Part shown: positions 1-16,123 of the stretch, one piece after another
How positions within the stretch are numbered: the stretch's first letter is position 1
Layout of the letters: every line of letters starts with the position of its first letter
Source of the DNA: a virus
Taxonomy: Duplodnaviria; Heunggongvirae; Uroviricota; Caudoviricetes
Length of the DNA: 16,123 nucleotides
Direction: 5' to 3' (one strand)
Virus record (IMG/VR): IMGVR_UViG_2558860288_000003
Location: 1-16,123 of that record
Made by a program: the position numbers and the translations under genes
The notes under the pieces: generated by a model
Told to the model about the DNA's origin: nothing
The model's database searches: none
The model's input: only the letters and a program-made list of their open reading frames with translations

Positions 1-216
1 AACACCCTCTGCCCAGGCGGCGTATTTCGGCAGCAGCTCCACCTTGATTTCCGCTTTTTTGACCGTGGACTGAACGCCCTTGAGACGGCGGCGGTCTTCC
101 GCCAGTTGCAGCAGCATCAGGTCATAGCCCGATGCGTGGCGAACACTGCCGCCCTCGCGGGCGGCCTGTTCAGCCTGAACGCGCAGGCGATGCTGCCGTG
201 CGGGACTCAGGCTCAT
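1..216 (-). CDS. Terminase small (endonuclease) subunit, P2 gpM family; N-terminal 72 codons only, gene runs off the window
   Basis: Minus-strand ATG at 216-214. The translation MSLSPARQHRLRVQAEQAAREGGSVRHASGYDLMLLQLAEDRRRLKGVQSTVKKAEIKVELLPKYAAWAEGV matches the N-terminal pattern of P2 gpM as I remember it (SPAQRH..RV, RHA, ML..LA.D.R.LK, ELLP, W..GV). A TAA of the preceding in-frame reading lies 3 nt upstream, as at the P2 N/M junction. Confidence 0.7.
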   Translation of the reverse strand, partial: MSLSPARQHRLRVQAEQAAREGGSVRHASGYDLMLLQLAEDRRRLKGVQSTVKKAEIKVELLPKYAAWAEGV

Positions 217-219
217 GGA

Positions 220-420
220 TTACGCTCCGGTTTCGGCTGCGGCGGCGCTGAAATCACCAATCTGGATGTTTTCCACCAGTGCGGCGCAGCGGTAGTCCTC
301 AACCACATAGGCTTCATTAACGGATTCAAAGTTTTCAATCCGGTCACGTTTCGGGTTGTCGATAACTGAACGGCGGCGGGTGTCTTCCTGCCAGTAGATG
401 GACAGGTCAACGAAGCCGAC
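220..420 (-). pseudogene. Major capsid protein (P2 gpN family) C-terminal remnant of about 66 codons with no start codon
   Basis: The minus-strand frame that ends in TAA at 222-220 reads VGFVDLSIYWQEDTRRRSVIDNPKRDRIENFESVNEAYVVEDYRCAALVENIQIGDFSAAAAETGA. This resembles the remembered gpN C-terminus (LSIYY..RRVI.ENPK.DR.EN.ES.N..YVVEDY...LVE.I..GDFS). It is bounded upstream by an in-frame stop at 421-423, contains no Met, and its 5' end overlaps the terminase reading frame. Confidence 0.5.
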
Positions 421-528
421 TTAAACCCTAACGTCGCCAACCGCAACAAAGGCCCGCGCCGTCAGCCGGAAAAGAATGTCTTCACCGATGAACAGATTGA
501 GAAGCTGGAAGAAATCTTCCATTCCTCC

Positions 529-1866
529 ATGTTCAACTACCAGCGCCACTGGTGGGAAGCCGGAAAAACCAACCGCATCCGCAACCTGCTGAAGTCACGC
601 CAGATCGGCGCGACCTTCTATTTTGCCCGTGAAGCCCTGATTGACGCTCTGCTTACCGGACGTAACCAGATTTTTCTTTCCGCCAGCAAGGCACAGGCCC
701 ACGTCTTCAAACAGTACATCATCGACTTTGCCAAAGAAGTGGAGGTGGAGCTGAAAGGCGATCCGATGGTGCTTCCCAACGGGGCCACACTGTATTTCCT
801 CGGCACCAATGCCCGCACGGCCCAGAGTTACCACGGCAACCTGTATCTGGATGAATATTTCTGGATACCGAAATTCCAGGAGCTGCGCAAAGTGGCTTCT
901 GGTATGGCTATTCACAAGAAATGGCGACAAACCTATTTTTCCACGCCATCCAGCCTGACACACAGTGCTTATCCGTTCTGGTCCGGTGCACTGTTCAACC
1001 GTGGGCGCAACAAAGCCGATAAGGTGGACATCGACCTGTCCCACAGCAATCTGGCCCCCGGCCTGCTGTGCGCAGACGGGCAATACCGCCAGATAGTCAC
1101 CGTGGAAGATGCGGTGCGCGGCGGCTGCAACCTGTTCGACCTTGACCAGTTGCGCATGGAGTACAGCCCGGACGAATACCAGAACCTGCTGATGTGCGAG
1201 TTTGTGGACGATCTCGCGTCCGTGTTTCCGCTCAGCGAGCTGCAGGCGTGCATGGTGGACAGTTGGGAAGTCTGGACCGACTTTCATGCTCTGGCCCTGC
1301 GCCCGTTTGGCTGGCGCGAAGTGTGGATCGGTTATGACCCGGCAAAAGGTACGCAGAACGGCGACAGTGCCGGATGCGTGGTGGTGGCACCGCCAGCCGT
1401 GCCAGGCGGTAAGTTCCGCATTCTTGAGCGTCACCAGTGGCGCGGGATGGACTTCCGCGCCCAGGCTGACGCCATCAAAAAACTGACCGAACAGTACAAC
1501 GTGACATACATCGGCATCGACTCAACTGGCGTCGGCCACGGGGTTTACGAGAACGTGAAAGCATTCTTTCCTGCCGTCCGGGAGTTTGTCTACAACCCCA
1601 ACGTTAAAAACGCCCTGGTACTCAAGGCCTACGACATTATCAGCCACCGCCGTCTGGAGTTTGACGCCGGACACACCGACATAGCGCAGTCATTCATGGC
1701 AATCCGTCGCGCCACCACCGCCAGTGGCAACCGCCCGACCTATGAAGCCAGCCGCAGCGAAGAAGCCAGCCACGCCGATCTGGCCTGGGCAACGATGCAC
1801 GCACTGTTTAACGAACCGCTGCAGGGCGAATCCGCCAATACCAGCAATATTGTGGAGATTTTTTGA
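529..1866 (+). CDS. Terminase large (ATPase) subunit, P2 gpP family; apparently N-terminally truncated
   Basis: The 445-aa ORF contains WWEAGKTNRIRNLLKSRQIGATFYFAREA and an acidic-residue-rich nuclease-like C-terminal half typical of P2-type large terminases. The frame stays open upstream to a TGA at 367-369 with protein-like sequence (LNPNVANRNKGPRRQPEKNVFTDEQIEKLEEIFHSS) but no start codon. The stop TGA overlaps the portal ATG. Confidence 0.8.
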   Translation: MFNYQRHWWEAGKTNRIRNLLKSRQIGATFYFAREALIDALLTGRNQIFLSASKAQAHVFKQYIIDFAKEVEVELKGDPMVLPNGATLYFLGTNARTAQSYHGNLYLDEYFWIPKFQELRKVASGMAIHKKWRQTYFSTPSSLTHSAYPFWSGALFNRGRNKADKVDIDLSHSNLAPGLLCADGQYRQIVTVEDAVRGGCNLFDLDQLRMEYSPDEYQNLLMCEFVDDLASVFPLSELQACMVDSWEVWTDFHALALRPFGWREVWIGYDPAKGTQNGDSAGCVVVAPPAVPGGKFRILERHQWRGMDFRAQADAIKKLTEQYNVTYIGIDSTGVGHGVYENVKAFFPAVREFVYNPNVKNALVLKAYDIISHRRLEFDAGHTDIAQSFMAIRRATTASGNRPTYEASRSEEASHADLAWATMHALFNEPLQGESANTSNIVEIF

Positions 1867-2894
1867 TGGGAAAGAGTAAGAAGAACCGCGCTGCGGCGAC
1901 GAAACAGATCCAGCTTAAAAGTCAAACTACAGCCGAAGCATTCAGCTTCGGCGATCCCGTTCCTGTTCTGGACCGCCGTGAACTGCTGGACTATGTGGAA
2001 TGCGTACAGATGGATCGCTGGTATGAGCCGCCTGTGAGTTTCGACGGACTGGCGCGAACCTTCCGCGCCGCCGTGCATCACAGTTCACCAATTGCGGTGA
2101 AATGCAATATTCTGACCAGTACCTACATCCCTCACCCGCTGCTCAGCCAGCAGGCTTTTTCACGTTTTGTGCAGGACTATCTGGTATTTGGTAACGCCTA
2201 TCTGGAGAAACGCACGAACCGGTTCGGTGAAATTATCGCTCTTGAGCCTGCCCTGGCAAAATATACCCGACGCGGGTTAGACCTGGATACCTACTGGTTT
2301 GTGCAATACGGTATGACCACGCAACCGTATCAGTTCACGAAAGGCAGCATTTTTCATCTGATGGAACCAGATATCAACCAGGAGATCTACGGCCTGCCCG
2401 GTTATCTTTCTGCCATTCCGTCAGCCCTGCTCAACGAGTCCGCCACGCTGTTCCGCCGTAAGTATTACATCAACGGCAGCCATGCAGGCTTCATCATGTA
2501 CATGACCGACGCCGCGCAGAACCAGGAAGATGTAAACAATCTCCGTAACGCGATGAAAAGCGCCAAAGGTCCAGGCAACTTCCGCAACCTGTTTATGTAC
2601 TCGCCTAACGGCAAAAAAGACGGGCTTCAGATTATTCCTCTGTCAGAAGTCGCGGCAAAGGATGAATTTTTGAATATCAAGAACGTGAGCCGGGATGACA
2701 TGATGGCAGCACACCGAGTGCCGCCGCAAATGATGGGGATAATGCCGAATAATGTTGGGGGATTTGGGGATGTGGAGAAGGCTAGTAAGGTTTTTATGCG
2801 TAATGAATTGATACCGCTACAAAACAGAATAGAAGAACTCAATAAATGGCTCAAAGATGACATAATAAAATTCATGCCATACAGTTTCATATAA
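1866..2894 (+). CDS. Portal protein, P2 gpQ family
   Basis: The ORF is about 342 aa from the ATG at 1866 (the ORF track began at an in-frame TTG at 1863). Size and position immediately downstream of the terminase ATPase gene match the P2 P-Q operon, with a TGATG overlap and GGAG upstream. Confidence 0.8.
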   Translation: MGKSKKNRAAATKQIQLKSQTTAEAFSFGDPVPVLDRRELLDYVECVQMDRWYEPPVSFDGLARTFRAAVHHSSPIAVKCNILTSTYIPHPLLSQQAFSRFVQDYLVFGNAYLEKRTNRFGEIIALEPALAKYTRRGLDLDTYWFVQYGMTTQPYQFTKGSIFHLMEPDINQEIYGLPGYLSAIPSALLNESATLFRRKYYINGSHAGFIMYMTDAAQNQEDVNNLRNAMKSAKGPGNFRNLFMYSPNGKKDGLQIIPLSEVAAKDEFLNIKNVSRDDMMAAHRVPPQMMGIMPNNVGGFGDVEKASKVFMRNELIPLQNRIEELNKWLKDDIIKFMPYSFI

Positions 2895-2899
2895 AACTA

Positions 2900-2920
2900 A
2901 GGGCCGAATACCTCGGCCCT
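2900..2920. terminator. Stem-loop between the convergent portal gene and cargo gene X
   Basis: AGGGCCGA-ATACC-TCGGCCCT forms a perfect 8-bp stem with a 5-nt loop. On the minus strand it is followed by TTAGTTTTAT, so it is a plausible intrinsic terminator for gene X and possibly also for Q. Confidence 0.45.
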
Positions 2921-2925
2921 CTACA

Positions 2926-4131
2926 TTAAGATTTATGGCTAAAGAGTATACCTGTAACAGAACGTTGATAGGCATCAAGCTTCTCTTGCCTCTGCTTAAA
3001 TTTAGATTTGATATCACTAATACTCGGAATACCTATTACTCCAAGGCCTGCACTTAACGCCGTTAAAGTAGTATTGCCAGTCAGCGCTCCAGCAATTGCT
3101 ATAGCACCATTTGCGATACATGGTAGGACATCTAGTCCGTAAATTCTCAATTTCTCTTTTTGGGCTTTTGCAAGAATCCTTTGATGTTCAATAAAAGCCC
3201 GGTCTACATTATCAATTACTTTTTGCGTTGTCCTCGAAAAGCTCTCTGCCGAAGAATTGATTAAAGAGTCAACACCATTTGATAAGATGGATCTTACATC
3301 CTCCATCAATTTGTTACGTCTCAACTCAATTATTTTATTGACCGGTACATTTCCTAACCATGAAAAACCATCTTGCATACCAGCAGATAACGCATGAACC
3401 ATATGCAAATTTTTTAGTTCAATATCATTGACATCAAAATTAAGAGATTCGTACTCAATAAGCCAAGTATAATAGAGCCAAGATGTGTCTGCATTTATAT
3501 ATGGAGTACTACCAAGTTCTTGTGCATTACATTTTGCTGAATAGGCTTGCGGCATTCTTCCAATGCAGGAAAGGAAAACCTCCATTCCAGCATGATCACC
3601 AACAAGATTACGTGATATTCTTTTTTTATCAGATAGTAGTTTTTCTAATTGAGTTTTTGGATTTAGCCCCCATGCTGTATCAAAAATAAGTCTATCTGCT
3701 CTCTTAATATTTTTAAGAACAGCATCAATATCATTCATCGAATAACTAAAATCTCGAAATTCATCGTAGCTTTCGAACCGTCGATCATAGAGATATTGCG
3801 CATGAGTCAGAGCATAAGGCTCACAAAAACTCATCAAATTTTTTTTGCTCTCAGTTTCAAAATCTCTTCTATCCGGCAAAATTAATACTATTGCTGGCTC
3901 TATATCTTCAAGCGCTACTTCTTTATATGTCATACATGTTAGGACATGCTTCAGAAGTATCCTTGTAAACTCAGCCTTATCTGACTTTTCATAGAGACGA
4001 CCGACTCTTAATATAGGACATGGAAGTGAAATAGTATCAACATACAACCCTGCAATAGAGACAGCATTCTCATCAAATGCAGGAAATAAGTCACCAGAAA
4101 AATTAGCTTTAAACTGAGAACCATCCTGCAA
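2926..4131 (-). CDS. Uncharacterised protein, C-terminal ORF of split gene X (candidate defence / abortive-infection effector)
   Basis: The 401-codon ORF in the track starts at a TTG. The same frame stays open and protein-like for 40 more codons upstream, to a stop at 4252-4254 (SIKFFSQQEEYVKQIEDIFPELYNQVIEFWQVTSDIGVIH), with no ATG. The C-terminal region has a hydrophobic Gly/Ala-rich stretch (LPCIANGAIAIAGALTGNTTLTALSAGLGVIGIPSI). The gene is strongly AT-rich by eye. Confidence 0.6.
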   Translation of the reverse strand: MQDGSQFKANFSGDLFPAFDENAVSIAGLYVDTISLPCPILRVGRLYEKSDKAEFTRILLKHVLTCMTYKEVALEDIEPAIVLILPDRRDFETESKKNLMSFCEPYALTHAQYLYDRRFESYDEFRDFSYSMNDIDAVLKNIKRADRLIFDTAWGLNPKTQLEKLLSDKKRISRNLVGDHAGMEVFLSCIGRMPQAYSAKCNAQELGSTPYINADTSWLYYTWLIEYESLNFDVNDIELKNLHMVHALSAGMQDGFSWLGNVPVNKIIELRRNKLMEDVRSILSNGVDSLINSSAESFSRTTQKVIDNVDRAFIEHQRILAKAQKEKLRIYGLDVLPCIANGAIAIAGALTGNTTLTALSAGLGVIGIPSISDIKSKFKQRQEKLDAYQRSVTGILFSHKS

Positions 4132-4205
4132 ATGTATTACACCAATATCGGATGTTACCTGCCAAAACTCTATTACCTGATTATATAACTCAGGAAAAAT
4201 ATCTT

Positions 4206-4598
4206 CTATTTGCTTAACATATTCTTCTTGTTGAGAAAAAAACTTGATGCTTTATGTGGCGTTGCATTAGTTTTTTTCATCAGATAAAACAACTCGCCAA
4301 AATTACTAAAAAGAATATTAAAGTAAGAACTTTGCAAGTCCTGAATAGAGTATTTGTTTTTTATATCTTCTCTTTCTAAAAAGTGATTAACCGCTGCTCC
4401 CATAGCCCTTATTCTGCCATCAACAGTAGAAGGGTCAACTTTACCATCCTGTCGCAGCCTTATTCTTTTAAAACTTTCAATAAAACCTTCTACAAGATGA
4501 TGAGCTATTTTTAGTTTTCCCGCTTCCAGTTGTTGCTTAATGAGAAAAACACGCTCAGTTAAATCATCTACATATTCCTCATCTTGATATTTTTCCAT
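4206..4598 (-). CDS. Uncharacterised protein, N-terminal ORF of split gene X
   Basis: ATG at 4598 with a GGAG 5 nt upstream (ttaatGGAGcgtttATG). The 130-codon ORF ends shortly after a T7 homopolymer (plus-strand A7 at 4236-4242). One extra T would fuse it in frame to ORF 2926..4131. Confidence 0.55.
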   Translation of the reverse strand: MEKYQDEEYVDDLTERVFLIKQQLEAGKLKIAHHLVEGFIESFKRIRLRQDGKVDPSTVDGRIRAMGAAVNHFLEREDIKNKYSIQDLQSSYFNILFSNFGELFYLMKKTNATPHKASSFFLNKKNMLSK

Positions 4599-4706
4599 AA
4601 ACGCTCCATTAAAATATTTAATAATGCATATAAGAATAGTTAATAATATTTACAGTAACTATATCACATTAGATCCAGATTGTTACACTGTTGCGCGCGC
4701 TCGTAT
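4599..4706 (-). promoter_or_regulatory. AT-rich upstream region of gene X (putative promoter)
   Basis: About 100 bp of very AT-rich non-coding sequence immediately upstream of the gene X start, with several TATA-like hexamers. No -35/-10 pair could be assigned with confidence. Confidence 0.3.
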
Positions 4707-4718
4707 CCCCGCCACGCC
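4707..4718 (-). other. cos-like motif: GGCGTGGCGGGG on the minus strand, matching the first 12 nt of the 186 cohesive end as remembered
   Basis: The plus strand reads CCCCGCCACGCC. The remembered 19-nt cohesive ends are GGCGTGGCGGGGAAAGCAT (186) and GGCGAGGCGGGGAAAGCAC (P2). Here the first 12 nt match 186 exactly and 3 of the remaining 7 also match (about 15/19). Orientation and position (between the A/tum side and Q) fit a cos site. Confidence 0.4.
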
Positions 4719-4767
4719 TGCTCGCTTTGTGTAGTGGTTTTCATGCAGGTGCATGACATAAGCAAAA

Positions 4768-4787
4768 GCCCGCCAGAACTGGCGGGC
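4768..4787 (-). terminator. Hairpin GCCCGCC-AGAACT-GGCGGGC followed on the minus strand by TTTTGCTT
   Basis: Perfect 7-9 bp GC-rich inverted repeat. On the minus strand a T-run follows it, so it is a possible second terminator or structured element in the cos-proximal non-coding region. Confidence 0.35.
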
Positions 4788-5003
4788 CTGCATCAAAACG
4801 ATCCTCAAACGATCATGCGTTCTCATGCAGCATAGTCATGCACGGATGAGAGAAATGAATGCGCGTATCCAAATGCCCGTTTGAAAAACGCAGATGAACT
4901 AAAAAAGCTTAAGGTCTACTATGAGCGAGAAACGGACATTTAATTTTCGAGTAGTGGAAATCGAAGCCAGTACCTGCCGGAGCCATAGTATCGAAACCAC
5001 GAA

Positions 5004-5031
5004 CAATAAAAAGCCTGGAAATATCCAGGCT
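5004..5031 (-). terminator. Intrinsic terminator downstream of the qor-like gene
   Basis: Stem GCCTGGA / TCCAGGC (7-8 bp) with a 4-nt loop. On the minus strand it is followed by TTTTTATTG, and it lies about 37 nt past the qor stop. Confidence 0.55.
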
Positions 5032-5066
5032 GCGCAAGACTCATTTATAGAATGCTGCGGTAAGGA

Positions 5067-6059
5067 TTACTCAACGGTCACAACTATTTTGCCGACCTGT
5101 CCATTGGACTCCATATAGCGCTGGGCGTCTGCAATCTCTTCGAACGGGAACGTCTTATCGATGACCGGCTTCAGTTTGCCGACTCGCAAGCCTTCTGTGA
5201 TAAAGGATTTTGCGCGCGCCATTTTTTCAGAGTCCGTCGTGATTTCAAACAGCTCATATCCACGCAGGGTGAGATGCTTACCGAGAATATCAAATACAGG
5301 CACAAGCATGTCACGGCTATCGAGCGCGCCGTACTGGAAAAACATACCCTGTGGTGCCATCACCTGCGTCAGTTTTGCCACGTCCGGCCCACCGACGGGA
5401 TCAAAAACAATATGGGCACCTGCGCCATCTGTTGCACGACTGATTTCAGCAACCATATCCTGCTCCGCAGTAGCAATGACGGCGGCTGCGCCAGCTTTAA
5501 GGAGCATTTCGCTTTTTTCAGAGGTCCGTGTGAGTGCAATTGGGTTTGCACCCAGCATGTTAGCAATCTGTATGGCAGCCAGACCCACGCTGCTTGATGC
5601 TGCGCGGATCACGACATTCTGACCAGCCTGAAGGTTGCCATACTCAACCAGCGCACCATAAGCGGTGACATACATCATCCAGCTTGCGGCGGCTTCCTCG
5701 AATGAAAGGTTTTCAGGATGCTTTACGACAGCATGAACCGGTGCGTTGACCACTTCACCATACATGCCGTATTCATTAAACATAAATGAAGGGATCACGC
5801 TTACCCGATCTCCAGTGGTAAACTCATCTACATTCTCACCTACTGCCTGTACAACGCCGGCCGCTTCATAACCAAGACGTGCCGGAAATTCCGGCTCAAT
5901 AACATATTGGCCGTTGCGGTACATGATTTCTGCACGGTTGATACCTATCGCATGTACGCGGATCTGCACTTCACCCGCTGTCGGTGCAGGCACCTGCACA
6001 TCAACAACTTCCAGCACTTCCGGGCCACCGGTGCGGTTAAAGGTAATAACTTTAGACAT
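5067..6059 (-). CDS. NAD(P)H:quinone oxidoreductase-like enzyme (medium-chain dehydrogenase/reductase superfamily)
   Basis: The translation MSKVITFNRTGGPEVLEVVDVQVPAPTAGEVQIRVHAIGINRAEI... has the typical quinone-oxidoreductase N-terminus and a Rossmann-type glycine-rich segment (VVIRAASSSVGLAAIQIA). ATG at 6059 with a GAGAG SD; the track start at 6065 is a TTG. Confidence 0.85.
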   Translation of the reverse strand: MSKVITFNRTGGPEVLEVVDVQVPAPTAGEVQIRVHAIGINRAEIMYRNGQYVIEPEFPARLGYEAAGVVQAVGENVDEFTTGDRVSVIPSFMFNEYGMYGEVVNAPVHAVVKHPENLSFEEAAASWMMYVTAYGALVEYGNLQAGQNVVIRAASSSVGLAAIQIANMLGANPIALTRTSEKSEMLLKAGAAAVIATAEQDMVAEISRATDGAGAHIVFDPVGGPDVAKLTQVMAPQGMFFQYGALDSRDMLVPVFDILGKHLTLRGYELFEITTDSEKMARAKSFITEGLRVGKLKPVIDKTFPFEEIADAQRYMESNGQVGKIVVTVE

Positions 6060-6208
6060 ATTCAACTCTCTTCAGTTAAAGGCACACCTTCAGAATAATG
6101 CCGAAGGGATGCCCGAATCATTTGTGAACAATCTACGTTGTTACGAACACACCAGAAATAGCTGAGAGGGAACTTCAGTATTAATTATCCATTAACAATC
6201 CGCCTGCT

Positions 6209-7099
6209 TCAGCGGATCTGCGTGGCCAGAATATCACTGAACCAGTCGATAAAGACGCGCACTTTTGGAGAAAGGTAGCGCCTGTCGGGATACATCACTG
6301 ACACGGGCTTTGACACCGATGGGTATTGCGGCAGAATCTCTTCAAGAGCGCCGGAAGCAATATGGGGAGCAACGGCATCATAGGTAGCCTGGATAATGCC
6401 CAGACCAGCCAGAGCACAAGAAAGCAGAATATCGGAATTATCAACCAGCAGGCTGCCCGCAGGACGTAGCGAAACAATGCTCCCGTCTTCGATAAACTTC
6501 CATTCCATGACGTCACGACTGTGGTCGCTAAAAAAGTTAATTGCCCGATGTTTATCCAGATCCGCAAGTGTTTCTGGCCGCTCATGCTGCTGCAGGTAAG
6601 ACGGGGCTGCACAGGTAACCATCCGGATGTCACCAAGACGTCTGGATATAAAACTAGAATCTTGAAGCGCCCCCAGGCGGACAAGGCAATCTACGCCTTC
6701 CGTAATCAAATCAGTTTTTTTATCGGAAGAAACCAGCACAACTTCAATACCTGGATACAGTGCCTGAAAATGCCTGAGATTAGGGATCAATATGGAATGC
6801 GCCAGCGCCAGGGGCACATCAAGTCTCAGGCGTCCTCGCGGTGGAAGTGTCGGTGAAAAACTGGCCATCATGTCATTAACTTCGGCCAGAACATGCCTAG
6901 CATGATGATAGAACTCATCCCCTTCAGCAGTAACGCTCAGCTTTCGGGTTGTGCGATAAATGAGTTTTACACCCAGATCATGCTCTATCTGCTGTATCGC
7001 TTTGCTCACAGTGGGGCGATGAATCTGAAGTACATCAGCAGCTTTCGTGAAGCTACCCTGCTCAACAACCTGTATGAAAATATTTAGGTATTCAATCAT
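6209..7099 (-). CDS. LysR-family transcriptional regulator
   Basis: From the ATG at 7099 the protein starts MIEYLNIFIQVVEQGSFTKAADVLQIHRPTVSKAIQQIEHDLGVKLIYRTTR..., the canonical LysR-family N-terminal helix-turn-helix. The rest has a substrate-binding-domain-like size of about 296 aa. Confidence 0.85.
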   Translation of the reverse strand: MIEYLNIFIQVVEQGSFTKAADVLQIHRPTVSKAIQQIEHDLGVKLIYRTTRKLSVTAEGDEFYHHARHVLAEVNDMMASFSPTLPPRGRLRLDVPLALAHSILIPNLRHFQALYPGIEVVLVSSDKKTDLITEGVDCLVRLGALQDSSFISRRLGDIRMVTCAAPSYLQQHERPETLADLDKHRAINFFSDHSRDVMEWKFIEDGSIVSLRPAGSLLVDNSDILLSCALAGLGIIQATYDAVAPHIASGALEEILPQYPSVSKPVSVMYPDRRYLSPKVRVFIDWFSDILATQIR

Positions 7100-7333
7100 G
7101 TTGGCATGCACGTGCTCACCTGTTTTGTAGGCTGTTCAAAACCGACATTGTAAAGTAAACCATCCCAACGACATTATTTCTTTTCGTTCAGATAAGGGCT
7201 TTCTGACTGTCACAATGTCCACTTCTGGCACAAAGCGGACGACCATTTTCAAATGGCCGTCGCATCTAACACCTCGTTTCACTCATTGTTCAACCTTACC
7301 CCCATCAGAAGGAATTCTTTCGGGGGCAACGTT

Positions 7334-7567
7334 TCAGTGTAACCAGCTGTCGTCTTCCCAGACCTGCTGCAGAATTTCCATTACACGTTCCTTATCTTCA
7401 GCCTGTCTTACCCCGCTAAGTTCAATACCATTGGCGCTGCCCTTGCGGATTCGGATAGCTGTTTTTGGGTAGAGGGGGCGCAAATTTCGGTAAAGCTCGG
7501 ATTCAAGTGCTTCTAAAAGCATCTGGCTAATTTTCTGCTCTTTATCGATCATTATTTCAATGCGCAT
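7334..7567 (-). CDS. DinI-family protein (186 Tum C-terminal-domain-like)
   Basis: The 77-aa protein MRIEIMIDKEQKISQMLLEALESELYRNLRPLYPKTAIRIRKGSANGIELSGVRQAEDKERVMEILQQVWEDDSWLH aligns with E. coli DinI as remembered (MRIEVTIAK...ELSRR...VSVRYAAANNLSV...KEDKQRISEILQETWE). ATG at 7567 is preceded by AGGGGA. Confidence 0.75.
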   Translation of the reverse strand: MRIEIMIDKEQKISQMLLEALESELYRNLRPLYPKTAIRIRKGSANGIELSGVRQAEDKERVMEILQQVWEDDSWLH

Positions 7568-7577
7568 AGATTTTCCC

Positions 7578-7766
7578 CTAACAGGTAACGTCCATTGTTC
7601 GGCTGTATTCATGGTTGCGGATTTTCGCCATCAGCTCGTCAGTCAGCTCGGAAACCCACTGGATGGCCAGCCGCTTTTCTTCGTCGCTGCACTCGCTCGC
7701 CGCTACCAGTTTTATGAAAAAATCGATGCGCTGAAGTTTCAATGATTCCAAAAGATAATCCTGCAT
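7578..7766 (-). CDS. Small protein, first gene of the SOS operon (Tum N-terminal-like?)
   Basis: ATG at 7766 with a strong SD (taatAGGAGGgaaaATG); the track start at 7787 is a GTG. The 62-aa product is MQDYLLESLKLQRIDFFIKLVAASECSDEEKRLAIQWVSELTDELMAKIRNHEYSRTMDVTC. Its TAG stop lies 10 nt before the DinI-like ATG, suggesting coupling. Confidence 0.5.
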   Translation of the reverse strand: MQDYLLESLKLQRIDFFIKLVAASECSDEEKRLAIQWVSELTDELMAKIRNHEYSRTMDVTC

Positions 7767-7798
7767 TTTCCCTCCTATTACGGCCACTTACACAAGAT

Positions 7799-7833
7799 AA
7801 CTGTATGTATATACACTGTTTATATATACAGTA
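7799..7833 (-). promoter_or_regulatory. LexA operator(s) / SOS-regulated promoter of the tum-like operon
   Basis: cACTGTTTATATATACAGTA at 7814-7833 is a perfect CTGT-N8-ACAG core and matches 18/20 of the consensus TACTGTATATATATACAGTA. A weaker overlapping box at 7799-7818 (aACTGTATGTATATACACTG) has ACAC instead of ACAG. Both lie 35-65 nt upstream of the operon start. Confidence 0.7.
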
Positions 7834-7922
7834 TAGTACCGATTTCTAAATGTAAAACGCTTTTTTGGACTTCAATAAGAAAGCCCTGATATGAGTCAAA
7901 GACAGGAAATATTTTCGGTGTG

Positions 7923-10316
7923 TCAGTAATACTGCCGCCACTTGTCATCCTCACGCAGCCGCCCGTTCTGGTAAAAGATGCGCAGCCCTCCCCCTGACGG
8001 AAGGCTGCCGCCGCGTAAAAGTAAATTCACTTCATACTCACTGCCATCGAACCCTCTGGACCGCAACTCATACTCCAGCTGCAGGCGCTGCTGCTCAGAA
8101 ATATTCTGCTTGTATGCCTTTTTCCGTTTCGGTTTTACCAGCCTGAGCCGGGCAACCAGCTCCCGCCGTTCCTTTTTGCCCATGCCGTGCAGATAGTCCT
8201 GCAGCGCCTTTTCATCCATGGACGTGATACCCGTTACTTCCCCCCCTGTTTGGTTCAAATTTTCAACAGGGGGACAGTTATTGCCACGAGTCCAAGGGGC
8301 GCAAGCGCCCTGGTCGGCTGCCGCCTCCTGAACGTCAACGGCCTTACGAACCATTTTCCACTTCACGGCATGAGTGCAGATCTTGCCCTCTGCAATAGGT
8401 GACCAGATGCCATAAATACGAATGCCGTGATCGCCATAGGCGGTCGGCTCTTCGTTGATTTCATAAGCAGTTCTGATGAGGTGATATTTGCGGGGAACCA
8501 GTACGCCACCCTGCTTCATGATGTAGGTGGCAAAACAACCAGCATCAGCAGCAGCCAGAATGGCATCAAGGCGCGGGTTATCCAGTACCGGCGCACCTGC
8601 TTTTTTGTCCCCCTGTTGCCTTGCCGCCTGACCAGCCAGCAATCGCAGTTCACGGTAAGCCTGACGCCCCGGAATGCCAAAGAAGCGGAATTGCTGAACA
8701 CGATGCAGAGACGCCCAGGCATTAACGTATTCAGCATTATCACGCAGGGATTTCCCCGTTTCCTTGCTGATCTCGCCAGCCAGACCACGCCCGTCAATGT
8801 TCTTACTGATGTATTTCACGATGTAGCTAGTCGGCGTTCCTTTGCGCGGGTTTATCAGCTCAGACTTAAAGCGTGGCCCCGTGTTATTACCCAGCTCCTC
8901 GCGGTCTTCACGGATAGCAAACTTACGCAACAATGCAGTAATGGCGCGGCGGTCTTTTTTGCGCATGAAACACAACAGGTGCCAGTGAACTGTGCCGTCA
9001 TGATGCGGCTCAGCCACCCGCACGCCATACCAGCGCAACCCGGCTTTGTGCATCGCCTTACGAAATGCAGCAAACATGCCGACCAGATAATCACTGCTTT
9101 GTCTTACCGTCGCATTTGTCCAGGTCGGGTTGGGCCTGCCGTTATTTAGCGTGGAATGGAAACGTGACGGACAGGTGATGGTGTAGAAAACGGCGCAGTC
9201 ACCGCGCATTTCCGCGATAAGCTCCAGACCTTTAACACAGGCCATCATCTCATTGCGGCGATGCGCAGGGTTGCTGCTGCTGGCGTTTACCACATCCTCC
9301 ATGTCCAGCGTGTCGCCGTCTTCGTTCACCAGTTCATGAGAACGGAAAAACTCCAGCGACTTACGGCGCTGCTCACGTTTATGCATCACGGCTTCATAGC
9401 TGACATAGGGAGATGCTTTTTTGCTGACCAGGCAAACAGCACGCAACTGCTCTTCCCGCCATTCGCAACGCATCTTCCATAATTTCCGGTACCACCAATC
9501 GGCGCACAACATACGCGCCAGCGAACCCGGAATGAGTTCATAGGGCACGGGTTTACGGCGGTTTCTTTTCCGGCGGAGTTGCTCAAACGCAGGCGGTATG
9601 ACATCCAGTCGCAGGGTTTCTGCTGCCACCTTTTCCCATGTCTTGCGGATTTCTTCTGGCTTAACATCATCGGTGGCGTACAAATCACCACAAGCGGCAT
9701 CAAGACACATACTCATATGCGCAGCGACAAGAGTAGACAGGCGTTTCACCTGATCCTGACTCATTTCAGGCAAGATCAGCAGGCCGTCCAGCCCTTCATG
9801 GCTTGCCATAAAGCGAAAAGAAGTGGATAGCTGACTGTCGCGTACATGCTCCAGTCGTTCCAGACATGGCTTAATCGTCTCACGCAAATAGCGGGAATAA
9901 GCCTTTGGCCTGCCCAGGCTGCTGAAGTATTCAATACGTTGCATCAGCGGCTTGCTGATATGGGAAGGCTGGGCGTTAACGTCCGCCAGTATGACCATGT
10001 CCGGATTAAAACGCTGCTGCTCATGCGCCAGCTTTGCCCGGCTAATAAGCTTATCCTGCTCCATTTCGCGCTGGACAGGATCACGGGATTCATTAAAGAA
10101 ATAACGCTCCCAGACCTGATCACTCAGTGCCTCGCGGCGCAGTTGTTCCTGCTCGTTATCGGCAGCGTACAGAGTGATCAGGTTTGAAAGCGCAGAAACC
10201 GGCGCAACTTCCGCCGGGTCCAGATAAGGGTTAATAGCCTTTTTCGGGCTGTTCCATGAGAATGCTGCGGCGGCCTCGTTAAAGCCGCTGCAGTTGTTCA
10301 TATCAGCATGGCTCAT
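7923..10316 (-). CDS. Replication initiation protein, P2 gpA family (rolling-circle HUH endonuclease)
   Basis: The 797-aa protein contains a His-hydrophobic-His motif ([11 protein letters not shown]) and sits at the P2 gene A position downstream of the early genes. Its start overlaps the dam stop (ATGA). Confidence 0.85.
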
Positions 10317-11170
10317 GCACGCACTCCGTACACGGCAGAACTATCCACGCCACGCGAAGAATCAAATCCCACCCAGCAGCGTGCCCCAGAAACAGCGATG
10401 ATTTCTGTTGCAGATTTACTCTCACCAGCTGCTACGCCGATGCTGCGTTTTGCCTTGATGTAGTGGTGAGTAAAATTGCGATACAGCGAACGGATCAGGG
10501 ATGTGTCACTGTTAGAAACAATGACCGGATGTCCTTCTGATGACCGATGTTCAAGAACGGATGCCAGGTGATACTGGTCATCTTCAGTGAAACCATCAGT
10601 GTGATAGCCGGAAAACGTACCGTCATACGGCGGATCGCAATACACCACATCCCCCGCCTTCAACATCGCCAGCGTTTCATCAAAGCTGGCGCAGATAAAC
10701 GTTGCTCGCTGGGCCTTTTCTGCAAATGCGCGAATTTCTTTTTCAGGGAAATACGGATTTTTATAATTACCGTAGGGAATGTTGAAATGCCCGCTCTTGT
10801 TATAGCTACATAAACCACGGTAACCGTGACGATTGAGATACAGGAAATATACCGCTTTCATGAAATCAGTAATTTCAGTTGAGTAATTAAACTCCTGCCT
10901 TATGTTGTAATAAGCCACCTCCCTGTTTGCGATCTCAAATAAAACTCTGGCGCGAGATATAAACGATTCACAATCAGCAGCAACCTTTTTATAGAGGTTG
11001 ATTAAATCAGGATTAATATCCGCAACAAGATAGCTGGGGTAATCCGTCTCCATCATCACAGCACAGGAACCCGCGAAAGGTTCAACCAGTCGCGGGCCAG
11101 CAGGAAGATGTTTTTTCAGTTCGGACATAATGGTAGTTTTATTACCCGCCCATTTCAGGATGGTGCTCAT
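10313..11170 (-). CDS. DNA adenine methyltransferase (Dam-like, GATC-type N6-adenine MTase)
   Basis: From the ATG at 11170 the protein starts [62 protein letters not shown]... and contains a DPPY catalytic motif ([12 protein letters not shown]). SD AGGAGG; the track start at 11242 lies inside the upstream gene. Confidence 0.85.
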
Positions 11171-11469
11171 ACAGCACCTCCTGCAATAACATATCCTAAA
11201 GCTTCTAATGGGGTTAATGGGCGAATTGATAGCATCACCCATTGTTCTGAAACTGCCATGACGTCATTAACCGGAAGCACATGAGAGATAACAGCGGCCC
11301 ATTCCCTACCCGTAAATACGCCATGCTTCCATTCGCAAAGAGAAAGAACATCACCAACTTTATAGCCACGATCGTCTTTACGAAGTTCAGCCGTCTTTTG
11401 ACCTGCAACCACAGCGTTGAAATACTTAGGTGCAATTTTTAATTGATGGATACGCACTGCCCTTGTCAT
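11167..11469 (-). CDS. Small early protein, ASCH / DUF3850-like
   Basis: From the ATG at 11469 the 100-aa protein starts [41 protein letters not shown].... SD GGAGG. It has ATGA overlaps with both neighbours. Confidence 0.55.
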
Positions 11470-11693
11470 ACAGCACCTCCGTTGTAATGTTTGCCTTTCA
11501 GCTCTACGATTTCCTGGCAGGTAATGCAAAGCTGCACTCCCGGAATGGCGCGGCGTCGTGCTGGCGGAATTGGCGCTTCACATTCAATACAAAGCACGCG
11601 AGACACGCCCGGTGTTTTGGCACGGGCAGCACGAATATGGCGCTGGCGTTCTTCTTCAACGCGCTGCTGTACGAGATCCATTGCATCAGCCAT
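11466..11693 (-). CDS. TraR/DksA-family C4 zinc-finger protein
   Basis: The 75-aa protein has a Cys-x2-Cys ... Cys-x2-Cys arrangement (CIECEAPIP...LCITCQ), typical of the small TraR-like zinc-finger proteins in P2-family early operons. Confidence 0.7.
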
Positions 11694-11926
11694 TAGTGGA
11701 TCTCCTGCGCTTCGTTCTGGATTGCTTCAGCAGTTACACGCAGCAGTTCTGCCGCTTCGACGTGGTTTAGCTGGCGGGATGTGATATGACACGCCAGGCT
11801 ATCAAGGCGAGCTGCCATTGCTTCAGCCCTTGCCCGGCGTTCTTCCAGACGAGCCTCTGTCAGTAAAATATTAAGCCCTGCGTCATCCGGTCCGGTTTTA
11901 GTCGAGAGGGTTTCAATATTACGCAT
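11693..11926 (-). CDS. Hypothetical early protein (small, helical)
   Basis: ATG at 11926 with SD AGGAGA. The 77-aa product is rich in Ala/Arg/Glu. Its stop overlaps the next start (TAATG). Confidence 0.45.
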   Translation of the reverse strand: MRNIETLSTKTGPDDAGLNILLTEARLEERRARAEAMAARLDSLACHITSRQLNHVEAAELLRVTAEAIQNEAQEIH

Positions 11927-11993
11927 AATCAATTCTCCTGAATTTAGATAAAGGGATGCCCGGCGGGTTTACGCCATTAATTTCATTAGTTGG

Positions 11994-12335
11994 TTAATTC
12001 GGCATGGTTAGCCGTCTGGGAAATAAGCTCACCACTGCACGAAAATGATTCATTGCTTTAATCAACTCCCGCTTTTCGTCAGTGGTCAGCTCATTAATGC
12101 TGATGCTATGACGTTCAGCTGGAATTTTTGCCATAAAGAATATGGCAGCCAGTGCCCGTTTATTTTGTTCGCTATTAATATCGCGTGGATCACGCATATC
12201 TTTAATAAACCGCTCAAGCTCTGACTCAATATTCAGACCAAAAACTTTCGCCCTTAACTCCGCAATGTGATTAAGTCCATTCAGGCGTTGACCGGGGCTT
12301 AATGGAACAGTCGCCGCAGCGCCTTCAATAGCCAT
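11994..12335 (-). CDS. Hypothetical early protein (at the 186 dhr position)
   Basis: ATG at 12335 with SD GGGGGA. The 113-aa ORF overlaps the upstream fil-like ORF by 37 nt in another frame. Confidence 0.45.
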   Translation of the reverse strand: MAIEGAAATVPLSPGQRLNGLNHIAELRAKVFGLNIESELERFIKDMRDPRDINSEQNKRALAAIFFMAKIPAERHSISINELTTDEKRELIKAMNHFRAVVSLFPRRLTMPN

Positions 12336-12499
12336 TTGTTCCCCCGTTTTTTCGTAGATAGTTCTGCCAGCAATTCATCTTGTGAACGGCACGGATGCCA
12401 GCGTTTACCATCCTCACCCATGATCCAGCCGTGACCGTAGTGCATTGCCGGGCTTTGTTTAACCAGCAGCGATGCAAATGATGGTTCTTTCGTAAGCAT
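12299..12499 (-). CDS. Small early protein, possibly Fil-like
   Basis: ATG at 12499 with SD GAGGTG; the 66-aa product is MLTKEPSFASLLVKQSPAMHYGHGWIMGEDGKRWHPCRSQDELLAELSTKKRGNK.... The position immediately after cII matches fil in 186. The family assignment is from memory only. Confidence 0.4.
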   Translation of the reverse strand: MLTKEPSFASLLVKQSPAMHYGHGWIMGEDGKRWHPCRSQDELLAELSTKKRGNKWLLKALRRLFH

Positions 12500-12506
12500 A
12501 AGCACC

Positions 12507-13016
12507 TCACAGCAAACCGAATGAAGCACCAAGGCCAGTCATGGTATCAACTGCACTCGCCATCGCCGGGTTAGCCTGTAAACGGGCCTGCAATGAAACA
12601 GCAGCCAGCGCCATCAGTCGTGTTACAGAGTTAATGCTGCTGATAGCATCACGACGACCTGCACTGGTTTTTACATTGCCAGATACCGCACCTGCAGCAA
12701 CACGCCCGATCTCTGCGGTTGCACTCATGACGTAATGCGGCAGTTTCTCTTTTGCTACCTCATTAATCGGTACACATGGCAGGCAGTGAATCTGTGCCAG
12801 AAAACCATCTATCAGCGTTGAATCTTCAGTCAGATCGGTAAGCAGCCAGATTTCTGGCGCATTGAGCTGATGCGGTTGATCTGGGTTGAGTTTGTTTCGC
12901 AGAGTCTGGACATTCATTCCTGCACGTTCTGCCAGCTTCGCCATATTGTGACGAAGTGCAAAAGCTCTACAGGCTTCATCAAAATGCGGGTGTTTGGAAA
13001 TCTTATAATCAAACAT
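12507..13016 (-). CDS. cII: CII-like lysogeny establishment regulator (186 CII family)
   Basis: The 169-aa protein MFDYKISKHPHFDEACRAFALRHNMAKLAERAGMNVQTLRNKLNPDQPHQLNAPEIWLLTDLTEDSTLIDGFLAQIHCLPCVPINE... has the same length and the same start as 186 CII as remembered. SD AAGGGGG. Confidence 0.8.
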   Translation of the reverse strand: MFDYKISKHPHFDEACRAFALRHNMAKLAERAGMNVQTLRNKLNPDQPHQLNAPEIWLLTDLTEDSTLIDGFLAQIHCLPCVPINEVAKEKLPHYVMSATAEIGRVAAGAVSGNVKTSAGRRDAISSINSVTRLMALAAVSLQARLQANPAMASAVDTMTGLGASFGLL

Positions 13017-13048
13017 GCTACCCCCTTAGAAAGTTCTCATAATTGAAC

Positions 13049-13291
13049 TTACTTACCAACAATGACGCGGAAGTTGGAATGACCGAGGGATTCACGGACC
13101 TGATCGGTTTTGTACATTAAATAACGCAGGCTTACGCGGCCTTTGTTTTTTTCTTTCTTGACCATGTATTTAGCAAGCTGACCATGGTGAATTTTTTGAT
13201 ACACGGAGCCGCGGGAGATACCTTCCCATTCCGCGAACTCTGCAGGCGTAGCCATCTCTTTTGGTACACGAATTGAAATATCAGTACTCAT
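13049..13291 (-). CDS. Apl/Cox-like excisionase-repressor, first gene of the lytic operon
   Basis: 80-aa basic protein, divergent from cI and immediately upstream of cII. It has a helix-turn-helix-like segment (ATPAEFAEWEGISRGSVYQKIHHGQL). Confidence 0.6.
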   Translation of the reverse strand: MSTDISIRVPKEMATPAEFAEWEGISRGSVYQKIHHGQLAKYMVKKEKNKGRVSLRYLMYKTDQVRESLGHSNFRVIVGK

Positions 13292-13407
13292 AGTGCAGTA
13301 TCTCTTAGTTTGGTTTCGTTTTATCTTGTTTTATGTGGTTTGGTTTTGCTTTTCAAACCATAAATGGATATTGGGATCACTTTTTATATACGTCAAGGGG
13401 TTTGATT
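13292..13407. promoter_or_regulatory. Divergent lytic/lysogenic promoter-operator switch region
   Basis: 116-bp AT-rich intergenic region between the divergent apl-like and cI-like genes. It has repeated TTTGGTTT motifs (around 13310 and 13339) and an inverted repeat GGTTT-N8-AAACC around 13340-13357. Confidence 0.5.
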
Positions 13408-14040
13408 ATGAGTTTGATCAAGGCGGGAAATGATAGTGGTGGGCGCGATGCAATTAACAGGCTTATTAAGGCTTACAACTTCAGCTCACGACAGCAGCTC
13501 TGCGAACATCTGGAGGTATCCAAAAGCACTATGGCTAACAGATACTTAAGGGATAGCTTTCCTGCCGAATGGGTAATTCAATGTGCCCTTGAAACAGGAG
13601 CTTCCCTTCTATGGCTGGCTACTGGTCAAGGAGATATGTATGCGTGTGAGAACGAAGAAACAAATCTCAAAAATGAACCTCCCGTCACTGTAAGACCACT
13701 TTCTAAGATCGTTGCTCCTAGCATCAAACGTGTTGAACTGAAGAACGGCGAACTGCAGGCAAGTGATGAAATTCTTCTTGATAGCAGCCTGCTCGATGGT
13801 GACTCATCCAACGCTTTATTTGTTAAAACAGCTAATAATAGCTTTGTAGTGGATACGTCCGTTAAACAAGTCAGTAATGGCTTCTGGTTAGTCGATATGG
13901 ACGGAGTTAAAAGCATCGTCAAAATTGCGCGCATACCCGGAAACAAAATAGTAGTTAACCAAGATGACACTTCATTTGAATGTTCTGTAGATGATGTGGA
14001 AGTCGTAGGACGTGCAGTCAAAGTAATCAAGAACCTCTAA
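13408..14040 (+). CDS. cI: CI-like immunity repressor (186 CI type)
   Basis: ATG at 13408 with SD AAGGGG (the track start at 13333 has no SD and a non-protein-like leader). The 210-aa protein has an N-terminal DNA-binding-like region, sits divergent from apl/cII and lies directly upstream of int. Confidence 0.75.
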   Translation: MSLIKAGNDSGGRDAINRLIKAYNFSSRQQLCEHLEVSKSTMANRYLRDSFPAEWVIQCALETGASLLWLATGQGDMYACENEETNLKNEPPVTVRPLSKIVAPSIKRVELKNGELQASDEILLDSSLLDGDSSNALFVKTANNSFVVDTSVKQVSNGFWLVDMDGVKSIVKIARIPGNKIVVNQDDTSFECSVDDVEVVGRAVKVIKNL

Positions 14041-14043
14041 CTT

Positions 14044-15060
14044 ATGACCATCAGAAAACAGCCGAACGGAAAATGGTTGTGTGAGTGCTATCCCAATGGA
14101 CGCAATGGTAAGCGCGTGCGTAAGCAATTTGCTACCAAAGGCGAAGCCATTGCATTTGAAAGCTTCACCATGGACGAAGTAAACAAAAAGCCATGGCTTG
14201 GTGAGAAGGAAGATCGGCGGCGATTATCAGAAGTGATTGAGCAGTGGTATTCCCTATATGGTCAAACACTCGCAGACCCCAAACGCCTGATGGCGAAACT
14301 TAGAATTATCTGTAATGGTCTAGGCGATCCCATCGCCTCTGAGCTGACAGCAGGTGATTTCACAAAATATCGGGAAGCCAGATTAAAGGGGGAGGTCCAA
14401 AATGAAGACGGCTCGTTCATGTCACCCGTTAAACCTCGCACAGTTAATCTTGAGCAGCGTAACCTGTCATCGGTGTTCGGTACATTGAAAAAACTAGGGC
14501 ACTGGTCCGCACCAAACCCGCTGGCAGGGCTTCCAACCTTCAAAATTGCTGAAGGTGAATTGGCTTTTCTTTCCACGGACGAAATCAAACGCCTGCTTAA
14601 TGCCTGCGCCGAATCTCAAAACACCAGCCTACTAATGATTGCAAAAATATGCCTGGCTACTGGTGCGCGATGGAGTGAAGCAGAAAACTTGCAGGGCCAT
14701 CAGTTATCAAAATACCGGATCACCTATACCAAGACAAAAGGTAAGAAAAATCGTACCGTGCCGATATCTCAAAATCTGTATGATGAACTCCCCAAGAACA
14801 GAGGGAAACTATTCACACCGTGCAGAAAAGCCTTTGAACGAGCAGTAAAGCGAGCAGGCATCGAGCTACCAGAGGGCCAATGCACCCACGTGCTGCGTCA
14901 TACATTCGCCAGTCATTTTATGATGAATGGCGGGAATATTCTTGTCCTTAAAGAAATATTGGGCCATGCCGATATAAAAATGACGATGGTTTACGCACAC
15001 TTTTCTCCAGACCATCTAGAAGATGCTGTTACAAAAAATCCTTTACATAATTTGGTTTAA
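14044..15060 (+). CDS. int: Tyrosine integrase, P2/186 family
   Basis: The 338-aa protein starts MTIRKQPNGKWLCECYPNGRNGKRVRKQFATKGEAIAFESF..., typical of P2-family integrases. The C-terminal catalytic region has HVLRHTFASHF and a Tyr in MVYAHF. Confidence 0.9.
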   Translation: MTIRKQPNGKWLCECYPNGRNGKRVRKQFATKGEAIAFESFTMDEVNKKPWLGEKEDRRRLSEVIEQWYSLYGQTLADPKRLMAKLRIICNGLGDPIASELTAGDFTKYREARLKGEVQNEDGSFMSPVKPRTVNLEQRNLSSVFGTLKKLGHWSAPNPLAGLPTFKIAEGELAFLSTDEIKRLLNACAESQNTSLLMIAKICLATGARWSEAENLQGHQLSKYRITYTKTKGKKNRTVPISQNLYDELPKNRGKLFTPCRKAFERAVKRAGIELPEGQCTHVLRHTFASHFMMNGGNILVLKEILGHADIKMTMVYAHFSPDHLEDAVTKNPLHNLV

Positions 15061-15065
15061 TAGAA

Positions 15066-16123
15066 TGAAAAAAAAGCTCACATTAATCATTACCTACGCA
15101 ATCATTACTATCTTAATTGCCTTAGCATTGATATACACTAATCGTCCAAGAGTTTTTATCTTCTTTAGTGTAGCTTATATACTTGGATTGATACTTATGT
15201 TCTATTGCTTCAATTGGCTTAAACTAAATGAGAAAAATCTATTAAAACAACCATTATTCATAGCATCTATTATCGTACCGTTAAAAATGTTTGTTTTGTA
15301 TGGCCTCTGGGCTTGGAAAGGCCACGATTTAAATTTCACATCAGACGGTTTTAATCACTTTCTTGACATCTCTAAATTGCCATTATTTATTTTAGCTTCT
15401 TCGGTACCTCTTGCAGCAATCGTCAACAATATACATAGAACCACACAAACAGAGAACCAAATAGAAAAAACACAAAAGCAAATCAATCTTGTTATTGAAA
15501 AAAACACCACTGATTCATATTACTCACATCTGAAAAGCTTCGCTGACATATTCCAAACACTACCAACATTTAAATTATCAAGATTAAATAAAGAAACTAG
15601 TGATATAGACAGTATTGAACTATCTGTAGTTCATCCGTACACTCTTTATAAAAATATTTTCAAATCATCTTCCATTGATAATGGCTATAGCACCGTTGTC
15701 GAAGAAGATTTTATTCGAAAAACAACAAATCATTATAACAACATAAACAAATCGCTTAAGTCCAACAACAAAAATCATGACGACCAATTAGTTAGCCTAC
15801 AACTCATAGAATCAAACATAATTCAACTTTGCAGACTACTTGGAATTGATTATAAATACCAAGAACATCTTTTCTCAATAATTCTTGAACATCCAAAACC
15901 AGATACGGAAGCCATAAGCATCTCATTCAATGATGAAAAACAACTAAAGCAAATGCTTTGGGGACTAAGAAATATTCTCATTGAGTTATATGTTTTAATC
16001 GACAAGGACCCCTCTATCTTCCAAACAGGTAAAAGCAATGGTGATTACATACCTGAGTACGCACTATATGACGAAAAACTCTTTACAAGCATTTTACCTA
16101 TATCAAATGACCAGCGCATTTAA
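15066..16123 (+). CDS. AT-rich uncharacterised membrane protein (four predicted N-terminal TM helices plus a soluble domain of about 220 aa)
   Basis: Complete ORF of 352 aa from the ATG at 15066 (alternative ATG at 15023 overlaps the int 3' end); it ends in TAA at the window edge. Four hydrophobic segments (LTLIITYAIITILIALALIY, VFIFFSVAYILGLILMFYCF, LFIASIIVPLKMFVLYGLWAW, LPLFILASSVPLAAIV) precede a hydrophilic Asn/Lys-rich domain. Codon usage is very AT-rich. Confidence 0.6.

Follow-up and report, generated by a model that had tools for sequence, protein, structure and literature searches.

The window analyzed here is a stretch of 16,123 nt (positions 1 to 16,123 of IMG/VR record IMGVR_UViG_2558860288_000003) that corresponds to the first 16 kb of contig AHHN01000010.1 in the draft assembly GCA_000498235.1 of Escherichia coli ECC-Z. 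It starts within about two bases of the contig end, inside gene M; the remainder of the late region, including the tail and lysis genes of the prophage, would, if present, be located on another contig. The remnants of the capsid gene N and of the terminase gene P, termed N′ and P′, lie between M and the portal gene Q. Q is followed by a 557-aa cargo gene, cos, a cargo region coding for a LysR-type protein and a Zn-dehydrogenase, DinI, A (797 aa), and Dam, and then by CII, Fil, a Cox/Apl-like gene, CI, and the integrase gene. The following features are relevant for the analysis (window coordinates).

1 to 216, minus strand: 5′ part of gene M (terminase small/endonuclease subunit), first 72 codons, assigned by alignment to the Cartapus "terminase endonuclease subunit" and to M of the KE58 prophage
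220 to 407, minus strand: remnant of the major capsid gene N, consisting of the last 61 codons, one partial codon, and the stop codon (222 to 220), without a start codon, assigned by residues 292 to 352 of the Cartapus protein
407/408, no strand: deletion junction ggacaggt/caacgaag, with identical end points in comparison with 10 intact relatives
408 to 439, no strand: interval containing both recurrent end points described below, coding for the linker between the helix-turn-helix (HTH) and ATPase domains, defined by mapped junctions
408 to 1866, plus strand: remnant of the terminase large-subunit gene P, codons 104 to 588 and stop codon, assigned by alignment to the 588-aa P and by Pfam
529 to 1866, plus strand: longest P open reading frame (ORF) with a start codon, 445 aa, beginning at Met144 of P, taken from the ORF list
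1866 to 2894, plus strand: intact portal gene Q, 342 aa, co-linear with Cartapus and present in the contig gene listing
4693 to 4841, no strand: retained cos region, of which 4693 to 4746 match the Cartapus "putative cos site" and 4693 to 4841 the KE58 counterpart

M, N′, P′, and Q are co-linear with Cartapus (L001) and with the intact prophage of E. coli KE58 (L002), and the position of cos next to Q, the gpA protein, a 186-type switch, and a tyrosine integrase are features of P2/186-like phages. Pfam domains were detected for P′ (Terminase_6N and Terminase_6C), the portal protein (PF04860), and M (PF05944) and, in the same contig, for A (PF05840, 797 aa), CII (PF06892), Fil (PF10893), CI (PF07022), and the integrase (PF00589). 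Gene M starts at ATG 216 to 214 on the minus strand, exactly where the sequence-only reading had placed it, and its reading frame runs off the contig. Overall, the window is 92 to 99% identical to Cartapus, the KE58 prophage, and P2-like phages of Klebsiella and E. coli; positions 11466 to 16123 reach 99.4% identity to the KE58 prophage, which sits at ssrA. Two further peculiarities of the window concern its cargo. The gene of the 557-aa protein (function not known), which is continuous in other E. coli strains, is split into 121 and 438 aa here (2929 to 4598, minus strand) by a frameshift near 4236 to 4242 in a T7 run, which is either a second genuine lesion or an error in sequencing the homopolymer. 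Between cos and DinI, the variable region (5067 to 7111, minus strand) codes for a LysR-family regulator and a zinc-type alcohol dehydrogenase; this cargo is metabolic and not recognizable as anti-phage.

The first 2.1 kb of the window were compared with relatives by megablast. The alignments split into two co-linear pieces, positions 2 to 407 (M and the 3′ end of N), which are 97.0% and 98.5% identical to Cartapus and KE58, respectively, and positions 408 onward (P and Q), with approximately 95% identity. Both pieces are oriented as in intact phages, and N′ still adjoins M. Between them, 2,171 bp are absent relative to Cartapus, KE58, and eight further intact relatives, with the same size and the same end points in 10 of 10 comparisons. 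The sequence-only reading had located the junction somewhere within an overlap of the two gene fragments at about 400 to 425; BLAST replaced this range by the single point 407/408. Comparison of the junction with the intact relatives revealed no microhomology at this join. From N to P, the missing segment takes in 871 nt of N, the N-O spacer (16 nt), the complete O gene (834 nt), the O/P intergenic region (142 nt), and 308 nt of P, corresponding to a loss of 291 codons of N and 103 codons of P. Consequently, the earlier expectation that gpO, most of gpN, the P/O promoter region, and at least 90 codons of P had been lost was borne out. As homology extends over hundreds of bases on each side, the scar is not a chance pattern.

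The capsid remnant is short but unambiguous: the codons at 223 to 407 (minus strand) are identical to residues 292 to 352, i.e., the last 61 residues, of the Cartapus major head protein. The frame stays open for five more codons past the junction (VGFVD) before it meets a stop; these are junction-derived and not capsid sequence. Together they make up the frame of about 66 codons that had been described as capsid-like, correctly with respect to the open frame and its missing start codon, too generously with respect to its capsid content. A similar adjustment applies to the terminase. Its plus-strand frame is indeed open from position 370 for 498 codons without a start, as proposed before, whereas the P-derived part is limited to the 485 codons from 408 onward, which begin with NEADLNPNV at residue 104 of 588. 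The length of about 590 aa that had been given for P2 gpP agrees with the 588 aa found in intact relatives and with the 585 to 590 aa of P homologues in functional phages. As almost all of the best 120 P protein matches are full length, they are uninformative on the length distribution of truncated homologues. According to Pfam, full-length P consists of the Terminase_5 HTH (residues 11 to 68), the Terminase_6N ATPase (162 to 382), and the Terminase_6C nuclease (410 to 571). P′ keeps the ATPase and nuclease domains intact and lacks the entire N-terminal HTH domain. The first in-frame ATG, GTG, or TTG in the remnant is the ATG at 529, and no sigma-70-like promoter was predicted in window positions 1 to 900, hence none upstream of P′. 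The 445-aa product is nevertheless annotated as "terminase, ATPase subunit [Escherichia coli ECC-Z]"; for annotation purposes, this "terminase" and the 61-codon capsid tail represent pseudogene fragments.

Taken together, the alignments make it very likely that the window derives from a 186-type (Peduoviridae) prophage of E. coli ECC-Z, spanning its early region, cos, its portal side, and the beginning of its late region, and that a simple internal deletion of 2,171 bp fused the antisense 3′ end of N to codon 104 of P and removed the divergent late promoters as well as the DNA-binding N-terminal domain of P. The absence of O and of most of N from the window is thus due to the deletion only. 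In an intact relative, the O/P intergenic region contains a TGT-N12-ACA element, the hallmark of Ogr-dependent late promoters in P2, and this element is lost from the window. Judging from the established roles of N, O, and P in P2, it is reasonable to assume that a prophage missing N, O, and a transcribed full-length P would be unable to build heads or package DNA on its own and would thus persist as a defective remnant inherited vertically; complementation could be provided by a co-resident P2-like prophage. As essential genes are missing in comparison with intact close relatives, which is the mark of a defective (cryptic) prophage, and judged from the scar, the ECC-Z prophage is very probably defective.

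Close relatives carry the intact region, which had been suggested earlier as a check on sibling strains. The identical portal protein occurs in 465 blocks of the assembly collection, mostly beside an intact P. Among ten places in which it is accompanied by the same 557-aa neighbor, M, N (352 aa), O (277 aa), and P (588 aa) are all intact in eight, and the remaining two have other deletions. The intact state in eight of ten places indicates that the N′/P′ lesion is recent and strain-specific. Consistently, the exact junction 23-mer had no match in other genome, viral, or metagenome contig collections, none of the complete E. coli genomes spans an N′/P′ junction, and the junction was seen in GCA_000498235.1 alone, 407 nt from the contig end. 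Two loci with the same portal as the window (L325 and L329) share a small deletion of 410 bp, which joins O at 9195 to P at 9606 (located at 4388 to 4390) and thereby also eliminates the late-promoter region together with the beginnings of O and P; further late-region deletions are present in both loci.

A junction observed in a single draft assembly close to a contig end raises the question of an artifact, in which the first 407 nt (M′-N′) would have been mis-joined or chimeric to P while the real prophage is intact. The missing microhomology at the join would fit this notion, and the T7 homopolymer frameshift in the same prophage could point to sequencing errors. On the other hand, the two pieces have kept their native orientation, N′ has kept its native contact with M, and the P-side break falls on the same nucleotide as an independent event in another assembly and within 1 nt of a junction class present in 106 complete genomes, a coincidence expected for a random chimera at about 1 in 1,800. 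We therefore regard an artifact as improbable. Still harder to sustain is a natural compact arrangement, i.e., a functional phage or satellite with a short terminase of 445 to 498 aa and no head genes, which had been named before as a finding that would overturn the deletion. It draws on the intact ATPase and nuclease domains of P and on the retained Q and cos, but there is neither a start codon before Met144 nor a promoter, the N fragment is a dead 61-codon tail, functional-phage homologues have 585 to 590 aa, and the relatives with an identical portal have a full-length P of 588 aa together with full O and N. Moreover, the gene listing contains no markers of P4-like satellites or phage-inducible chromosomal islands (PICI) and instead has the contents of a helper phage type (Q, P′, M, A, Dam, CI, CII, and Fil). 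This arrangement can hardly be credited. The other way out that had been considered, an intact capsid gene on continuation of the sequence, is closed by the position of the N remnant in its normal place beside M, which means that the missing part of N cannot be provided by sequence outside the window.

With the deletion itself thus being an ordinary one, another instance of well-known prophage decay, its end point within P deserves separate consideration. The exact 445-aa P′ ORF was found in 128 contigs and in 157 blocks of the assembly collection, and at the loci inspected, it is preceded by different DNA in each case. Junctions between late genes and the 5′ part of P were mapped to the full KE58 reference, the coordinate being the first retained base of P in L002 numbering. 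Eleven of 17 distinct junctions fall at two positions 31 bp apart, corresponding to 407/408 (hot spot 1) and 438/439 (hot spot 2) of the window; these are listed below together with one junction in between.

9761 (hot spot 1): the window, partner N; L009, partner T
9762 (hot spot 1): L013, partner D (D′/P′)
about 9775: L006, partner T
9791/9792 (hot spot 2): L003, L007, and L011, partner T; L004, partner K; L008, partner L; L012 (identical to L324), partner J
9792 (hot spot 2): L105 (IMG/VR), partner I
hot spot 2: L295 (metagenome), partner T

The last three lines contain the complete set assigned to hot spot 2. The left partners at the two positions thus vary among N, L, K, J, I, T, and D, and the microhomology at the junctions ranges from 0 to 7 nt. 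The P′ DNA to the right of the junctions differs by 1 to 5% between loci, which indicates that the deletions struck different parental phages. The D′/P′ junction at 9762 belongs to a remnant located at ybjL; it was found in 106 of 5,426 complete E. coli genomes and probably goes back to one inherited event. Long-read-grade complete genomes also carry junctions of late genes with P′, and beyond D′/P′ the complete genomes contributed J′/P′ at 9792 and T′/P′ at 9850. The junction set is small (n = 17) and was partly ascertained through a look-up of the exact ORF, which detects end points only between about codons 72 and 143 of P (about 215 nt), and P′ served as the anchor in all searches. Samples retrieved via DNA motifs, and hence independent of P′ ORF calling, yielded four breaks, two of which are at hot spot 2: among 119 IMG/VR loci retrieved via a 27-mer just right of hot spot 2, breaks were found at 9792 (L105) and 9529, and among 107 metagenome contigs selected with an anchor another 183 nt to the right, breaks were located at hot spot 2 (L295) and 9616. 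A look-up anchored on the portal gene added one extra junction, the O 9195/P 9606 deletion mentioned above.

In all 17 P junctions, late-gene DNA meets P directly, with no insertion sequence (IS) or other insert in between, and at this site the intact P genes sampled from IMG/VR and metagenomes were likewise free of insertions. A search for a motif shared by the left partners was negative. Near all 28 unique break points, CCGC and AACC were weakly enriched (13 observed versus 4.9 expected; p = 4e-4 before correction for 136 k-mers). Several additional observations were made at these and neighboring sites. A site with the sequence CA(A/C)CCGC in the lysozyme gene K (L002 5626 to 5632) serves as an end point in three deletions (K/P, lysB/K, and K/L in L004, L008, and L329). 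Two metagenome scaffolds with intact O and N, L005 (about 9880 to 9900) and L010 (about 9895 to 9920), have runs of N exactly at the hot spot, which would fit a branch in the assembly graph and possibly reflect mixed intact and deleted variants. The 845-aa protein P0100 of E. coli (L323 3000 to 3008) consists of the first 388 residues of tail-fiber protein H, in sense orientation, fused to P from about residue 132; this fusion must involve an inversion, and its P-side join lies a few nucleotides from the T′/P′ break of E. coli D2 (L002 9850), so that there may be a third recurrent position. Finally, P2-like loci of Citrobacter, Atlantibacter, Buttiauxella, Pectobacterium, and Phytobacter (L021, L048, L080, L085 to L088, L090, and L091, at approximately 4776 to 5480) contain a second, diverged copy of the terminase ATPase directly downstream of P, which has 30 to 38% identity and covers P residues from about 126 to 370. 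Long tblastn spans that had suggested an insertion in P (an intron, a homing endonuclease gene, or an IS) were traced to this diverged paralogue.

The distribution of end points leads us to a tentative proposal, which we consider somewhat less than an even bet, namely, that the P linker (408 to 439) might be a site-specific, one-sided deletion hot spot generating headless remnants of independent P2/186-like prophages. At either position, a precise end, created by a nick, a barrier, or a nuclease, would be joined to variable points in the late genes, and the resulting remnants would keep Q, the cargo/defense hotspots, and the early region. A recurrent truncation point in P is not mentioned in the papers examined on P2 hotspots and defective P2/P4 elements, and the P-side hot spot is apparently undescribed.

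The clustering could alternatively reflect selection and sampling rather than a mutational hot spot, with loss of the promoters and head genes being favored as long as Q and the cargo are kept. The anchoring of all searches on P′ and the span of about 215 nt accessible to the exact-ORF look-up would both promote such clustering, the remnants do keep cargo or defense genes next to Q, and the 106 genomes of the D′/P′ class probably count as one inherited event. Selection, however, could not fix the same nucleotide in eight events with different partners, half of the breaks in the motif-based samples are still located at the hot spot, and P′ without a start codon or promoter would make no product to select on. 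This explanation thus appears unlikely. The spacing of the two positions also called to mind escape from CRISPR-Cas3 self-targeting, in which a type I Cascade-Cas3 complex would attack a protospacer in the P linker, degrade the DNA in one direction, and leave ends to be rejoined. A fixed end near a 32-nt interval, long one-directional deletions, and short microhomology resemble known Cas3 outcomes, the 31 bp between the positions equal about one protospacer, and a CC dinucleotide precedes hot spot 2 like a type I-F protospacer-adjacent motif (PAM). Cas3 deletion starts, however, are normally ragged and not fixed to one nucleotide, and both the window and L009 retain the whole candidate protospacer. 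Furthermore, a 111-nt query (L002 9722 to 9832) gave no spacer-sized match outside P genes in the 5,426 complete E. coli genomes, and those with the D′/P′ junction show a single match to it. Self-targeting is therefore very unlikely as the origin of the end points.

For a site-specific hot spot in the P linker, several sources of the fixed end were considered and dismissed. A pseudo-origin for gpA was rejected because the motif common to both hot spots (GNCGNCAAC) does not recur anywhere else in the window, gene A included, and a resemblance to cos amounted to nothing beyond 11-nt chance matches. An adjacent deletion mediated by an IS was discarded, as no insertion sequence is present at the fixed end in any of the 17 junctions. 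The idea of a conserved DNA element embedded in the gene was given up since, in 41 homologues from across genera, synonymous variability at codons 101 to 115 is above the gene average. Inspection of the hot spot for repeats and palindromes yielded nothing notable, and folding of the single-stranded DNA predicted no unusual hairpin there (z-scores of 0.2 to 0.9).

One exact end, one variable end, and little microhomology point to a site-specific DNA end that was joined illegitimately. A possible, if doubtful, mechanism is that the DNA end arises where the P linker is prone to breakage or stalling and is then joined independently of homology. Based on the flanking gene order and the K-12 map, the chromosomal replication fork would run in the direction int to Q to P at both ssrA and ybjL, which would place the deleted DNA ahead of the fork. 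If the fork met a site-specific nick or barrier within the linker and collapsed, it could create a one-ended break at that site, which might re-prime or be joined further ahead in the late genes with 0 to 7 nt of microhomology. Such a sequence of events would account for the fixed right end and the variable left end. It is at odds with the results insofar as the junction of the window is devoid of microhomology and the hot spot did not reveal any nickase, binding site, repeat, or unusual structure.

The scar matters primarily for the annotation of the ECC-Z prophage and for predicting its inducibility. If the hot spot is real, inactivation of P2-family prophages would be partly deterministic rather than random decay, and breakage of independent P2-like prophages at the same two nucleotides would then mean that prophage domestication has a specific mechanism that is accessible to experiments. 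As context for its relevance, the P2-like family carries many anti-phage defense systems.

With respect to known systems, the window has the layout of 186/Cartapus-type prophages (Peduoviridae; P2-like), sharing the order M-N-O/P-Q, cos, the cargo hotspot, DinI, A, and Dam as well as CII, Fil, the Apl-like gene, CI, and int. In contrast to this type, it lacks the 2,171 bp containing N and O sequences, the late promoters, and the 5′ end of P, and it has the LysR and Zn-dehydrogenase cargo and the frameshifted 557-aa gene. R-type tailocins are headless particles derived from P2 tails, and the window resembles them in being a P2-like element without head genes. It differs from them in keeping the portal gene, M, most of P, cos, and the replication and integration genes, and its gene content gives no indication of domestication. 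A tailocin was accordingly rejected on account of the retained Q, M, P′, cos, A, and int, with the tail region lying beyond the contig end. Further counterparts are cryptic P2-like remnants, such as ogr-D′ of K-12 and the defective P2-like prophage of E. coli B, in which morphogenetic genes have likewise been lost by internal deletion while the early region, Q, and cargo were kept. The D′/P′ remnant at ybjL shares with the window a P-side end point that is the same to within 1 nt; the window differs from it by the size of the deletion (2.2 kb versus about 20 kb), by its left partner N, by its occurrence in one strain only, and by the attachment site, as its relatives are of the ssrA type. MMBIR-type models and alternative end joining describe microhomology-mediated or illegitimate deletions after fork collapse, and the junctions at the two recurrent positions in P agree with such models in their 0 to 7 nt of microhomology, in the combination of one fixed and one variable end, and in deletions that would extend ahead of the inferred fork.
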